This document shows positions 23,453 to 28,932 of a stretch of 64,000 nt of DNA, piece after piece. The stretch comes from Escherichia phage vB_EcoM_YN3. Location of the stretch: the sequence record PV763136.1; one strand, 5' to 3'. Under the pieces are notes generated by a model. That model did no database searches. It had not been told where the DNA came from and saw only the letters and a program-made list of their open reading frames with translations. The translations under genes and the position numbers were made by a program. How positions within the stretch are numbered: position 1 is the stretch's first letter; each line of letters opens with the position of its first letter.

Positions 23453-25531
23453 TTAAAAAGGCGTTTCATCATCCTCAAAACCAGGGACCTGGTCAGAGGA
23501 TGGATCATCGTACTGGAGGTCTTCCTGCGTGTCAACAGGCTTAACAGTAGGAGTTACAACCTTATCAGCCACAACCTTGCCCATAGGTGTTTCTACAACT
23601 GCATGCTCCTGATCCTCAAACATAGCCTGAGGTCTCCAAACAACCTCCCCACCTTCTCCGTCTGTAAACATTTGCATTTCTTTGTCCCAGTACCAATTAC
23701 TGGCATCATGGAACTTACCTGTGTGCGGGTCCATAACCAAAGTGTCAGCAATACCTAGAGTTTTTGCTGGACGGTTTTTAAGACCTACCAGACGGACACG
23801 TCCACGAGAACGATCCACCATTTCTTCGGCCTCGACACCTATGACTACCCAACTCAACTGTTCAAGCCCCGCCGATCCTCGCAAATTCTCTTTTCGCACA
23901 GGATACCAGAAAGGTAACGGGTTACCATCCTTGTCCTTAGGAGGCACAATCTCTGTACGTTTGAGGTGAGCGATCACCAAGATAAACACGTTAAACTGCT
24001 TACAAAACGCAGCCAGCTGAGTCATAGCCATGTCCAGTTCTTTTCGCTCATCCTTAACATTAAGCCCTGAAATTACCATGGACAGGTGATCCAGCACAAT
24101 ATAACGGCAATGGTACAGGCAAACCATTTGCTTAAGCTTGGTAATCAACTCATCCACCGGAATAGACCCGAAATGTTTGAACACTTTGATTTTTCCAGCT
24201 TTTGCCCATGATTGGTGAATCTCTGCGTGTTCTTGATCAGTTAAAAACTGGCTAGGATCTTCAACAAACTCTTTAACATCAAACCCTAACTGGTTTGCAT
24301 ACAAGGAGTTAATTGCTTCCTCTGGGTCCTCCTCAAGATGGATCATACATAGACGATCATCCTCTTCATAGTCATCAGCTTTCGGGCATGTCGGGTCCAT
24401 TAGGTATCTTGCAATACAGTGTTCCAGTTTTTTAGCTACGGTTGTTTTACCACCACCTGATGGACCTGTAAGCATTACTAGTGTCCCTTTGTGCAAGCCT
24501 TTTAGCATTTTTTGCAGTTTTGGGAACTCTGCGCTGATATCTACCCCGTTGGAAGTCTTTTTCCGCAAAGACTCGATAGAGAAGTCTTCTAAATCCGACA
24601 CCGCATCAGGCACATATTTAACAGGATGCCGGAACATGTTGACAATATCTTCCAGCTTTTTAGCCTTCAGCATGTCTCGGATATCTTTTACACCGTCAGG
24701 GTCATTTACTTCACCAGGGTATTCTACGTGGTAAACGTTATCAGCCATCAAAAATGCTGCGATATTGTGCGTGGCCTCAACACCTTTAATGACGTGTTTT
24801 TGCTTCTCTACCTCGTTAGCTGCATCGTTATCCATTGCCAGCACAACTGTTCCATAGCTACGGATAAACTTCTCATTGTTTGCAAAAGTATCTACTGCGT
24901 TTGCACATCCACAGTTAATTCCAACAAAAGGTAGGCAGGGTTTTCCTGCCAGATCACCACCGTTTATAACTGCGTCGATCCCGTCCTGGACCTCTTTAGC
25001 CCACTGCTTCACCTTTGCCGGGGCTTTAGCGTTGGTGAGAATCCCTTTTACCTGTATCTGATATGCAGCCTGCCATGCTGCAATAACATCGCCTTCCCCC
25101 TCACAAACGTTAATTTGCTTACGGTTGTTGGAAGATGCACACAGCTTTTGCCCAAACATCTGGGAGTTGGCCTTTACTATGCCAACAACGGAGAAATGGC
25201 CCCTTTGCTCTTTAGGAATCGTCCAGTCACGCTTTTTGAAACCGGACAGATTTCCGTAGCGGTCGTAATATGGGAAATATGTTGCAGTGACTGTCACACC
25301 GTCTTCTTGGGATAATGCTGATCGCACACCAAAATATTGTGCAGCCATCAGACCGATATTTTGTTGTGGGACAGGGACAATTTTAGTATTTTCTAAAACA
25401 GTCTCTACAGTTTCAACTTCTTTTTCATCACGATAGTCTCGTTTCACACTTCCCCCACTTTTATACTTAGTTGCTTTCGGGTTTGGCTCACCGAAACGGT
25501 TGTATGCAGATGCCATGAATTTACTTCCCAT
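23453..25531 (-). CDS. Bifunctional DNA primase/helicase (TOPRIM primase plus DnaB-like helicase)
   Basis: TOPRIM EGEGD and MDNDAAN; Walker A GPSGGGKTT; Walker B-like IVLDHL; AGGAG RBS; 11-nt overlap with upstream methyltransferase gene. Confidence 0.85.
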   Translation of the reverse strand: MGSKFMASAYNRFGEPNPKATKYKSGGSVKRDYRDEKEVETVETVLENTKIVPVPQQNIGLMAAQYFGVRSALSQEDGVTVTATYFPYYDRYGNLSGFKKRDWTIPKEQRGHFSVVGIVKANSQMFGQKLCASSNNRKQINVCEGEGDVIAAWQAAYQIQVKGILTNAKAPAKVKQWAKEVQDGIDAVINGGDLAGKPCLPFVGINCGCANAVDTFANNEKFIRSYGTVVLAMDNDAANEVEKQKHVIKGVEATHNIAAFLMADNVYHVEYPGEVNDPDGVKDIRDMLKAKKLEDIVNMFRHPVKYVPDAVSDLEDFSIESLRKKTSNGVDISAEFPKLQKMLKGLHKGTLVMLTGPSGGGKTTVAKKLEHCIARYLMDPTCPKADDYEEDDRLCMIHLEEDPEEAINSLYANQLGFDVKEFVEDPSQFLTDQEHAEIHQSWAKAGKIKVFKHFGSIPVDELITKLKQMVCLYHCRYIVLDHLSMVISGLNVKDERKELDMAMTQLAAFCKQFNVFILVIAHLKRTEIVPPKDKDGNPLPFWYPVRKENLRGSAGLEQLSWVVIGVEAEEMVDRSRGRVRLVGLKNRPAKTLGIADTLVMDPHTGKFHDASNWYWDKEMQMFTDGEGGEVVWRPQAMFEDQEHAVVETPMGKVVADKVVTPTVKPVDTQEDLQYDDPSSDQVPGFEDDETPF

Positions 25532-26315
25532 TAATTCTGCTCCTTACTACAGGCTCGTTTGCTAAGAATACAGCTTTTGCCCAGCCACGTGGTGTGAGGC
25601 TTCGAATCATCTTCGTTCTTGCACTCTTTCCACCCAGCTTGGCGTGTTGCATGGAATACCCGCTAACCACGTCAACTATTTGCGGGACAGGTTTTGTGGC
25701 CGGGATTATAAATCCATTACCTATCCATCCGCAAGTTATTTTTGGATAGGCATCACGTGGAGCTATAAATTCAGGAAACCATGGGTTTACATCATCTTCC
25801 GGTAAATACCCGCCATAATCCGAAGGATGAAAACGGTAATCAGGTTTGCGCCACAGCGTGGACATAACACCCACAGGATTCTCTACATGCCACGGGCAAT
25901 CGTAAATCTCTCCCAACTCTTCTGCAACCCGAGCATCTTTTACAGCATTAATTTGGATCAGAGGGTCCTTAGCCAGCTTTTTCTTAAAATGTGCAGCACC
26001 TGATACCGCCAAATGCGTGCACGGAGGAAATGCAAGAATAAAGTCTGGAGCCGGATACATGCAAAAAGTTTCCTGAGGGAACCATGGGTCAATCCAATAA
26101 TCAACATAGTGAATGTTGGGATGATCGGTGATCACCTCTGCATAACTGCCGTGATCAGCGCCTTCTGCATTAAAGCACAGGCACAGGTACCCAGCTTTTG
26201 CCCAGTCAATGACTGCACCACCGGACCCGTCAAATAGACTCCACACAACACCTTTGTGGTAGTGTTCTTTGTAGATAAATTTCAATTTGCTGTCTCCTAA
26301 TGCAAAAAGCCCCAC
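25521..26315 (-). CDS. DNA (cytosine-5)-methyltransferase-like, compact
   Basis: Motif I LFDGSGG, motif IV FPPC, motif VI VENP in canonical order; only 264 aa. Confidence 0.6.
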   Translation of the reverse strand: MGLFALGDSKLKFIYKEHYHKGVVWSLFDGSGGAVIDWAKAGYLCLCFNAEGADHGSYAEVITDHPNIHYVDYWIDPWFPQETFCMYPAPDFILAFPPCTHLAVSGAAHFKKKLAKDPLIQINAVKDARVAEELGEIYDCPWHVENPVGVMSTLWRKPDYRFHPSDYGGYLPEDDVNPWFPEFIAPRDAYPKITCGWIGNGFIIPATKPVPQIVDVVSGYSMQHAKLGGKSARTKMIRSLTPRGWAKAVFLANEPVVRSRINGK

Positions 26316-26336
26316 CCTTTCGGGCAGGGCCTAGTG

Positions 26337-27532: not shown

Positions 27533-27588
27533 TCGGTGTTCTCCTTATCTTGTGTGGAGAGTAGACCTCCCCTTCAATGTTTTAAATA

Positions 27589-28932
27589 TTACTCTAAATC
27601 TTCTTCTGAGTCAAACTTATCTTTCACAACCAAGTTCGGGGCAAGTTTATAATAGCGAAAGCCCCCGCCACCGTGCCAGTTTACAGATTTAGAAATACCA
27701 CTTTGATCTTCGCCATCGATCACTTTTTGCAAGCGCGGGATGATATGGGTATGACAATGATCACCTAGCTCGACCGAAATCCAACGTCTTTTCATCTTGT
27801 GAGCTACAGCAGCAGTAGTTCCTGAACCGCCGAACGAATCCAAGACTAAATCCCCTTCTCGCGTACACATTTCGAAAATCCGCTTTAAAAGCGCTTCGGG
27901 TTTTTTCCCATTTTTGAAACTAACGCCTCCTTCATTTGCTATTCCATTCCAACTAATGTCAGTCCAAACATCAGTTATTAGTTCAGCAGGCTGCATCTCA
28001 CCGTCAATTTCCAAAAGCCTATTAGAGTAAAATACCATTTGCCTGCCATTTACAATATAAAAGCCTTCGACATCCTCATTTGGATGCACATAAACCTTAT
28101 CTCTGTCTTTCTTTGACTTCTCGATAGTTTCTTTTCTCTTTATCTTAGCACCACCGCCAATTGCAACGGATTGAAATACACGTTCTGCATTATCAATTGC
28201 AAATTGTGCTAATTCATCATCAAATGTATCAGGCAGTTTTTTCTTGGCCTCTTTTGTATCTTTATAGCCATTGGCCTTTGCAAACGCATCGGCAATACCG
28301 CACCACGTCCAACTTTTATAATGGTCATCCGGGTTTAATAGATATTTGTTATATCCCGTATCATATCCTTTAGGTATATAGATTTTGTTAAGCGGCTTCT
28401 TGGTACGATCTTTTGCATATACAAGCAAAAAGTTTGCTGTGGAGAAAACTGCAGTTCCTGTTGCCTTAAAGCCCGAAGGACAGTTTGTGGTCATCGATAT
28501 GGTATTTAACTGATTTGCACGACCAAAAATCTCGTCCATCAAAACTTTTAAATAAGCCATTTCGCAGTCATCTAAGTGAACGAATATTACTCCATCATCG
28601 CTTAGCAGATTACGAATTATTTCTAACCTGTCCCGCATTAAGCCCAGCCAAATGGAGTGCTCCAGGCTGTCATCGTAGTGCTCAAAATCCCTTCCGGTAT
28701 TGAATGGCGGGTCTATGTAAACACACTTCACTTTGCCTGCATACTCTTGCTCTAGTGCCTTCAATGCCAGTAAGTTATCGCCAAAAATCAGTTTATTATC
28801 AAAAATATCGTTTTCGGTCACCTTTTTACTGGCGTGATAAGACTTGCTCGTGTCTTCTAACAAAATGCACGGATCTAACTTTTTTCGCTCGTTTTTGCCT
28901 GCCCAGGTAAGCTCTAATTTGGTTTTGCTCAT
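27589..28932 (-). CDS. Site-specific DNA adenine methyltransferase (beta-class, Type III Mod-like); start set at internal Met
   Basis: N-terminal LELTWAGK; catalytic DPPF; AdoMet motif FGGSGTT near C-terminus; GGGGAGAG RBS before internal ATG; track start would place a hairpin inside the CDS. Confidence 0.75.
   Translation of the reverse strand: MSKTKLELTWAGKNERKKLDPCILLEDTSKSYHASKKVTENDIFDNKLIFGDNLLALKALEQEYAGKVKCVYIDPPFNTGRDFEHYDDSLEHSIWLGLMRDRLEIIRNLLSDDGVIFVHLDDCEMAYLKVLMDEIFGRANQLNTISMTTNCPSGFKATGTAVFSTANFLLVYAKDRTKKPLNKIYIPKGYDTGYNKYLLNPDDHYKSWTWCGIADAFAKANGYKDTKEAKKKLPDTFDDELAQFAIDNAERVFQSVAIGGGAKIKRKETIEKSKKDRDKVYVHPNEDVEGFYIVNGRQMVFYSNRLLEIDGEMQPAELITDVWTDISWNGIANEGGVSFKNGKKPEALLKRIFEMCTREGDLVLDSFGGSGTTAAVAHKMKRRWISVELGDHCHTHIIPRLQKVIDGEDQSGISKSVNWHGGGGFRYYKLAPNLVVKDKFDSEEDLE

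Follow-up and report, generated by a model that had tools for sequence, protein, structure and literature searches.

Within the window, the 64,000-nucleotide (nt) stretch of Escherichia phage vB_EcoM_YN3 DNA (PV763136.1) analyzed here, two minus-strand genes encode predicted DNA methyltransferases of different chemistry, as a preliminary description of this DNA had proposed, one of the C5-cytosine type and one of the β-class N6-adenine type with a DPPF motif. We consider it probable that these genes are two independent orphan methylases and not one system, and that they serve narrow self-immunization rather than broad masking of the phage genome. The adenine methylase appears to be a recent acquisition from E. 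coli, a Res-blind version of a rare Type III Mod. As objects, the two methylase genes are not new, annotations of them existing in over 100 genomes; the result added here is the capture of an E. coli Type III mod gene by a phage, of which we found no earlier report in the literature searched. The features that carry this reading are:

25521 to 26285, minus strand: minimal C5-cytosine DNA methyltransferase-like gene, 254 amino acids (aa) from TTG 26285; assigned from phrog_757, motifs and AlphaFold2 fold

27589 to 28932, minus strand: predicted orphan Type III Mod adenine methyltransferase gene without the C-terminal (Res-docking) domain, 447 aa; assigned from PF01555, PADLOC and Foldseek

27603 to 28945, minus strand: segment 94% nt identical to the first 1,333 nt of mod from a chromosomal E. 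coli Type III system and to 11 nt upstream of it; from blastn

The adenine methylase displays the motif order of β-class N6-adenine enzymes, with DPPF followed by the target-recognition domain (TRD) and then by FGGSGT. PF01555 matches residues 86-412 of the 465-aa open reading frame (ORF; E=3.6e-42), the part from DPPF to FGGSGT being expanded by a long insertion, and the PADLOC MTase_III model PDLC03636 matches with E=3e-204. The best sequence matches in the PDB are the H. pylori Mod (1e-29) and the EcoP15I Mod (1e-23). Its AlphaFold2 model (predicted local distance difference test, pLDDT, 79) retrieves with Foldseek, on ranks 1-8, chains of the EcoP15I, H. pylori and Mbo45V Mods, which are the three solved Type III Mods in the PDB. 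By these matches, the adenine methylase is a true Type III Mod. Both DPPF and FGGSGT are intact and conserved. The preliminary description ended the region at 28932, and this is indeed the right ATG of the gene: the E. coli homologue aligns from that methionine, its own annotated ORF starting one codon earlier (MMSKTKL). We also considered phase variation of the phage gene and rejected it, no simple-sequence repeats being present.

Like the Type III Mods EcoP15I and EcoP1I, the phage gene has the β-class motif order, the N-terminal domain (NTD), the methyltransferase (MTase) core and the central TRD. By contrast, it is without the C-terminal domain (CTD) of about 125 aa, has no res gene and sits in the replication module of a lytic phage. 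In EcoP15I Mod, the NTD spans residues 14-60, the MTase domain 62-262 and 390-516, the TRD 263-384 and the CTD 539-644; the CTD makes extensive contacts with Res, dimerization is brought about by the NTD together with the MTase domain, and Mod2 works as a methylase on its own (PMC4490356). The phage protein stops at residue 443 of its 567-aa E. coli homologue (P0123), where the CTD begins. Model PDLC03636 is covered by the phage protein at positions 2-446 of 575 and by the E. coli protein at 1-572, and the alignment to EcoP15I Mod ends at about 521 for the phage Mod and about 531 for P0123. The CTD is strongly conserved among bacterial members of the family, and the four-domain NTD-MTase-TRD-CTD architecture is incomplete in the phage protein. 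As judged from these alignments, the phage Mod would keep the parts for dimerization, site recognition and methylation and be without the Res-docking domain. A tblastn search of the window and of the complete genome of the related phage WalterGehring (Bas51) found neither the cognate E. coli Res nor the missing Mod CTD (best E=0.3). In line with this null result, the earlier claim that no nuclease partner lies nearby holds, the neighbors being a primase/helicase, a Dda/PIF1 helicase, rIIB, rIIA and ORFans.

P0123, a 'site-specific DNA-methyltransferase', is the closest protein in a database of 5.8 billion proteins and is 95% identical in aa over residues 1-443. At the nucleotide level, the phage and E. 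coli chromosomal mod genes are 94.0-94.6% identical (94.0% over 1,344 columns by blastn). The homology sets in 13 nt ahead of ATG 28932 and breaks off 14 nt short of the stop codon, so that the last residues of the phage protein (...FDSEEDLE) are private to it. Because a truncated gene cannot regenerate a domain, transfer would have gone from bacterium to phage. Of 5,426 complete E. coli genomes, 24-25 (about 0.5%) carry the donor-type mod gene, and directly behind it lies the gene for a 910-912-aa protein that matches PADLOC REase_III (E=9e-191). Other orphan phage MTases, such as Dam of T-even phages and T1, Dmt of P1 and WalterGehring bas51_0176, share with both genes described here the lack of a nuclease, the lytic-phage setting and the expected modification of phage DNA, whereas this Mod is unusually close (94% nt) to one specific host restriction system.

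The E. coli island also encodes a DrmD-like SNF2 helicase, AbiD-like and AIPR proteins and, in front, a mad1-type helix-turn-helix (HTH) gene. As in the methylation-associated defense system (MADS), this is the opening gene of the island; RefSeq calls it mads1/MAD1, and the PADLOC mad1 model recognizes its product. We nevertheless rejected a filing as MADS: only this small HTH protein matches, and the others are typed as Type III Mod, Res and DrmD-like SNF2. Mod homologues in Acinetobacter and P. aeruginosa lie in the same layout of SNF2/DrmD-like helicase, variable cargo, Mod and Res, with a cargo that varies by host (AbiD + AIPR; AAA_21 + DUF4276; SMC_N + AIPR). The layout shared by the three hosts looks like a cargo slot inside an SNF2-associated Type III system.

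We also considered, without adopting it, the idea that CTD-less Mods are in general a phage-borne form; two other such Mods were found. One is a bacterial protein of 442 aa that looks like a product of a decayed locus; the other, of 444 aa and 81-83% identical, is encoded at 6001-7335 of a contig from Logan SRR16894903, between genes for PhoH-like and ClpP-like proteins. The contig is phage-like and carries a Dam-type methylase too. Because this 444-aa relative sits at a different locus, the truncated Mod has either changed its place among phage loci or been captured repeatedly.

Among related phages the mod gene is patchy. The 4.5 kilobases (kb) around the methylase genes share about 96% nt identity with phage FV3 and 93-95% with over 100 rV5-like Vequintavirus phages (117 related records). 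By this identity, the window is assigned to an rV5/FV3-like Vequintavirus; the region is part of the conserved block of replication genes. While 85 of the 117 records align over 80% or more of the 4.5-kb query, about 30 of the approximately 115 genus members align over 70% of it, in two segments, and have no adenine methylase listed, LL12, MaxTheCat (Bas57) and HeinrichReichert (Bas58) among them. The remaining four genes of the region are retained in these Mod-minus members, which make up about a quarter of the genus; in MaxTheCat, the 112-aa gene has the 101-aa gene as its immediate downstream neighbor. The boundaries of the missing stretch coincide with a duplicated intergenic module:

27575 to 28928, minus strand: 1.35-kb stretch missing from Mod-minus members; from alignment with phage MaxTheCat

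28928 to 28979, minus strand: upstream hairpin (GGGGAGG-AACT-CCTCCCC) and ribosome-binding site (RBS) module, directly before the Mod start codon

27526 to 27576, minus strand: downstream copy of the hairpin and RBS module, the right-hand imperfect direct repeat, aligning with 28979-28928

Thus, Mod is flanked by imperfect 50-nt direct repeats of a module that Mod-minus phages hold in single copy, an arrangement that allows loss of the cassette by recombination. The Mod gene is a separately acquired accessory cassette. In a further relative, EmilHeitz (Bas49), mod is frameshifted at about codon 44. This frameshift, the truncation, the absence from some 30 genomes and a C5 protein that stays below Pfam thresholds would agree with one or both genes being decaying, non-functional cargo. 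We find this hardly credible: the ratio of nonsynonymous to synonymous substitution rates (dN/dS) is low in both genes, about 85 genomes have an intact mod ORF, and the catalytic motifs are conserved. For mod the ratio is 0.06-0.13, also between phage alleles, indicating purifying selection.

From the gene identities, the truncation, the near-identity to a host gene, the pattern of presence and absence, the purifying selection and the lack of Res, all of which were observed directly, we infer the following course for activity, targets and protection. The mod gene would have been captured from an E. coli Type III system, its copy ending at an illegitimate recombination breakpoint just before the CTD. 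The phage Mod would act as a stand-alone dimer that methylates the asymmetric site of the donor system without recruiting Res. Replicating and packaged phage DNA would thus be pre-marked as 'self' for that one system, whatever the last host. Such a benefit would be narrow and conditional, which fits the loss or frameshift of mod in many relatives.

The same protein might instead work mainly as a subunit mimic, which heterodimerizes with host Mod or competes for its sites so that Res-undockable complexes poison the host Type III enzyme. The 95% identity to host Mod spans the dimerization and DNA-recognition domains, exactly the Res-contacting domain is lost, and the gene is under purifying selection, all of which suits a mimic. 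The intact and conserved DPPF and FGGSGT motifs, however, argue for retained methylation, and the protein is made only after DNA entry (a point that applies equally to methylation); on balance we regard mimicry as the main function as improbable. A dual countermeasure, in which pre-methylation would be joined by Res-blind heterodimers or site occupancy that disarm a resident Type III enzyme, is a tentative idea that we hold to be rather unlikely; if true, it would constitute anti-restriction by truncated subunit mimicry.

Orphan methylases are common in phages and often uninformative. Here, a donor-type host system that can be named and cloned offers a testable pairing, and natural controls exist in a public collection, with Mod intact in Bas50 and Bas51, frameshifted in Bas49 and absent in Bas57 and Bas58. 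For the self-immunization that we favor, loss of the Res-contacting domain would provide the rationale for carrying a restriction-modification (RM) subunit safely, and a payoff against rare hosts only would explain the patchiness. As an anti-restriction hypothesis, the proposal is specific and open to test, and its category is well known.

The cytosine methylase had been described as a 264-aa protein with a minimal TRD. The TRD is indeed minimal, but the length needs correction: because GTG 26315, the start of the 264-aa version, falls within a predicted terminator hairpin (26332-26307) and an RBS (AGGAGA) lies upstream of TTG 26285, the start is most likely TTG 26285, giving 254 aa and not 264. 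The 254-aa version is also annotated in phage WalterGehring and in cluster P0001. The protein matches phrog_757 with E=7e-87 and contains motif I (LFDGSGG), motif IV (FPPCTHLAVSG) and motif VI (VENPVG). In a 35-sequence family alignment, PPC (C99) and ENP (E145, N146 and P147) are invariant; the FDGSG of motif I occurs both in this protein and in the consensus of the family, where G30, S31 and G32 each reach at least 90% conservation. The same alignment shows a conserved IRSLTPRG segment, which resembles motif IX, and about 40 residues at the place of the TRD. An AlphaFold2 model built on the family alignment (pLDDT 88, predicted template modeling score, pTM, 0.87) was compared with the PDB by Foldseek, and all 50 listed matches are either catalytic-domain entries of DNMT3A/B/C or the prophage CP-933R MTase 3g7u (best match: E=8.6e-7, template modeling score, TM, about 0.5). 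HHpred on homologues from other Vequintavirinae likewise gave C5 MTases (PMC7344957, PMC11370258). By motifs and modeled fold, the 254-aa protein is a predicted minimal-TRD C5-cytosine methyltransferase with a DNMT3-like fold, which would methylate a short cytosine motif on replicating phage DNA. It shares the FxGxG, PC and ENV-type motifs and the Rossmann-type fold with the small-TRD C5 MTases DNMT3A/B, 3g7u and Dcm; by contrast with these, it has only 254 aa, with about 40 residues for the TRD, and is without a classical motif X after the motif IX-like segment. WalterGehring lists the gene as 'Dcm-like C5 cytosine methyltransferase' and the Mod-like gene as 'putative N6 adenine methyltransferase'; 'Dcm-like' is a name and not a result.

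The C5 family extends far beyond the genus. It comprises 1,551 phage records, mostly enterobacterial, including Drexlerviridae, Dhillonvirus, Kagunavirus and others, and the gene was found in every rV5-like genome inspected. Within the genus its dN/dS is 0.01-0.03, which signifies very strong purifying selection. It lies beside the primase/helicase gene here and also in the distantly related genus Henunavirus, and its homologues adjoin helicases in Dhillonvirus and Drexlerviridae. This constancy of presence, sequence and position next to replication genes across Vequintavirinae genera, together with the observation that C5-carrying phages are not notably restriction-resistant, would be consistent with the methylases, especially the C5 enzyme, serving phage physiology by marking replicated DNA, timing transcription or packaging, or letting phage nucleases discriminate phage from host DNA. 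Yet orphan phage methylases are classically anti-restriction, and the near-identity of Mod to the Mod of a host RM system points to defense evasion for the mod gene. We therefore see a physiological role as a minority explanation, unlikely although not negligible.

The DNMT3-like fold and a depletion of CpG raised the idea that the C5 enzyme is a CpG methylase. Over the whole window and the Bas51 genome, the relative abundance of CpG is 0.68-0.72 and that of TpG/CpA is 1.17-1.18. Three other phages with 48-53%-identical C5 homologues show a CpG excess (rho 1.12-1.29). Because these carriers lack the depletion, the C5 family does not explain it, and we rejected the idea as unsupported.

If the two methylases masked the phage genome broadly, as the preliminary description had suggested, carriers of both genes should withstand restriction. 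Published plating data show otherwise. In the BASEL study, Vequintavirinae were 'exceptionally susceptible' to RM systems (PMC8594841). Bas50, with both genes intact, has an efficiency of plating of 4e-4 to 1e-3 on EcoRI and forms no plaques on EcoRV (BASEL raw data, PMC8594841); of the Type III systems, EcoCFT_II leaves essentially no plaques and EcoP1 0.02-0.04 (PMC8594841). For Bas51, also with both genes intact, the values are 1e-4 to 4e-4 on EcoRI, no plaques on EcoRV and EcoP1, and none up to 0.06 on EcoCFT_II (PMC8594841). In line with these data, the window and the Bas51 genome avoid GC-rich palindromes, with observed over expected counts of 0/11.9 for GGCGCC, 1/15.7 for CGATCG, 2/16.7 for TGGCCA and 2/12.3 for GGGCCC, and such avoidance counts against masking because it would be needless if those sites were masked. 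The claim of broad masking thus fails. For Drexlerviridae, another phage family, BASEL reported that methylase genes do not relate to the restriction phenotype in any simple way (PMC8594841).

EcoCFT_II, whose site we take as CACAG from a published count of 310 sites, was considered as the system against which the phage Mod protects and was rejected: Bas50, with an intact Mod, is fully sensitive, and the partially plating Bas49 has a frameshifted Mod. Published data for this system give about 0.05-0.19 for Bas49 and Bas51 and essentially no plaques for Bas50, 52, 56, 57 and 58. On EcoP1, Bas52 plates at 0.02-0.04 like Bas50, and Bas51 does not plate; the EcoCFT_II/EcoP1 pattern does not track Mod status. 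None of the 25 E. coli genomes with a donor-type gene is labeled CFT073.

The preliminary description had further suggested that the two methylases and the three genes between them may form one functional unit. All five minus-strand ORFs are present as described (25521-26315, 26337-26819, 26832-27227, 27227-27532 and 27589-28986); the observation of both methylase genes and the three genes between them is confirmed, with right coordinates and two start codons corrected. The middle genes and the predicted signals near the C5 gene are:

26337 to 26819, minus strand: 160-aa ORFan, phrog_12900

26832 to 27227, minus strand: 131-aa protein, phrog_11995, with weak N-terminal phrog_10384 and weak C-terminal phrog_16943 matches

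27227 to 27532, minus strand: 101-aa protein, phrog_4240

26307 to 26332, minus strand: predicted intrinsic terminator between the 160-aa and C5 genes, 11-bp (base pair) stem with 7 G-C pairs, then a T-run

26353 to 26381, minus strand: sigma-70-like promoter match TTGACA-17-TACAAT, 11/12 consensus, inside the 3' end of the 160-aa gene; a consensus match only

According to this proposal, the five genes would form one anti-restriction island in which the methylases and three helper proteins broadly mask the genome. In favor of it, the genes lie side by side in one orientation with little space between them, and they combine two chemistries with no nuclease. However, co-orientation is uninformative because the whole region is on the minus strand with the same GC skew: the skew is negative throughout about 2 to 38 kb, and every ORF examined from 20.6 to 33.9 kb is on the minus strand. 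More directly, about 30 of some 115 members of the genus are without Mod and retain the other four genes, and the C5 family has 1,551 records where each middle gene has about 115-128. Restricted to the lineage, the middle genes do not accompany the C5 family elsewhere, where no PHROGs are shared. A predicted terminator parts them from the C5 gene. Added to this are the strong palindrome avoidance and the restriction of relatives with both genes, which is 1e3- to 1e4-fold by EcoRI and complete by EcoRV and extends to Type III systems. The island model is already largely refuted by the plating data, and we judge it very improbable; two separate orphan methylases probably account for the region instead.

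The three middle genes are lineage-restricted near-ORFans that stay when Mod is absent, and nothing was found that links them to methylation. Full-length matches occur only in rV5-like phages, in 115-128 records each. The 160-aa protein is found in 115 phage records, all rV5-like and at least 95% identical, and has 5 hits among 1.84 billion representative proteins in a full HMMER scan; the 131-aa protein has full-length matches in rV5-like phages only; the 101-aa protein falls into 2 clusters of the 5.8-billion-protein database and has a weak, 40%-identical match at the same relative position in Erwinia phage pEp_SNUABM_01 (Henunavirus). None of the three matches a Pfam, NCBIfam or PDB entry, and remote homology was rejected as a guide to function after these searches, a word search of the 5.8 billion proteins and the HMMER scan had proved uninformative. 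A conserved neighborhood of the ORFans with C5 genes elsewhere was rejected as well, no PHROG being shared with C5 neighbors in Dhillonvirus and Drexlerviridae. The terminator-like hairpin at 26332-26307 and the hairpins flanking the Mod gene are pattern predictions only. A transcript from the promoter match (26381-26353) would reach the terminator hairpin within about 15-40 nt, and the pair could reflect chance or an attenuator-like arrangement.

The DNA methylation of the genus is documented for Bas51. By nanopore sequencing, its virion DNA carries N6-methyladenine (6mA) at 1,405 GATC, 509 GTAC and 576 other adenines, and that of a T83P methylase mutant at 35 GATC, 511 GTAC and 349 other adenines (PMC12548924 S4 Table). 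We counted 703 GATC and 258 GTAC sites in the Bas51 genome, which puts methylation at 1,405/1,406 and 509/516 adenines, respectively; both motifs are essentially fully methylated on both strands. GTAC occurs at 0.59 of expectation although it is fully 6mA-methylated in Bas51. We considered the Mod-like bas51_0070 as the retron-triggering GATC methylase and rejected it, as the published D69G, D79G and T83P substitutions misfit its residues (C69, G79 and E83). Rather, D69, D79 and T83 fit exactly to bas51_0176, a 177-aa NPPY enzyme encoded outside the window. Thus, the retron-triggering 'Bas51 N6 adenine methyltransferase' (PMC12548924) is bas51_0176 and not the Mod-like gene. The characterized GATC methylase of WalterGehring is, in other words, a different protein from the Mod described here.

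Several points weigh against our reading of the two genes. For the C5 protein, no Pfam family, PF00145 included, was matched at E<=0.01, and no NCBIfam family either; a precomputed PF00145 match is carried by only 3 of the 120 C5 homologues among those listed. For Mod, the missing segment is equated with the CTD of EcoP15I from a weak pairwise alignment and profile coverage, and a C-terminally truncated Mod might be impaired. The selective value of the gene is uncertain, the donor-type system being rare (about 0.5% of complete E. coli genomes). The capture itself may be less simple than the identity implies: synonymous divergence (dS) between the FV3-type and rV5-type phage Mod alleles is 0.36-0.40, while either allele differs from the E. 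coli gene by 0.19-0.22 and the flanking C5 gene has a smaller dS of 0.10-0.16. These values suggest that the history of the cassette is older or recombining, and more complex than one recent capture. Finally, the Bas51 methylome was called for 6mA only (PMC12548924), and no 5-methylcytosine data were found for any Vequintavirus. The GTAC and 'other' 6mA would stem either from bas51_0070 or from bas51_0200, the third adenine methylase of Bas51, which lies outside the window and for which Pfam and PDB searches were uninformative. Known Type III Mods recognize asymmetric sites. By this analogy, GTAC would more likely be the activity of bas51_0200, with the Mod site among the 'other' sites.

The surrounding genes, all on the minus strand, are listed from the left end of the window:

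20617 to 23394, minus strand: DNA polymerase

23453 to 25531, minus strand: primase/helicase, next after the C5 gene in transcription order

28997 to 29335, minus strand: 112-aa ORF, adjoining the Mod-like gene upstream

29332 to 30702, minus strand: Dda/PIF1-type helicase, superfamily 1 (SF1)

30702 to 31907, minus strand: rIIB

31918 to 33900, minus strand: rIIA

The transcription order is thus rIIA, rIIB, helicase, 112-aa ORF, Mod-like gene, 101-, 131- and 160-aa ORFs, C5 gene, primase/helicase and DNA polymerase, and the identical order is annotated in WalterGehring. In pEp_SNUABM_01 (3486-5999), the helicase-to-C5 interval holds different small genes and no Mod; the 101-aa protein has its homologue there, alongside an 89-aa product annotated as 'DNA ligase' and a 'putative anti-restriction nuclease'. 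Over the region analyzed here, 16 GenBank MG0656xx records of 'Campylobacter phage' (host: C. jejuni) are about 94% identical to rV5-like coliphages, and their labeling as Campylobacter phages looks doubtful.

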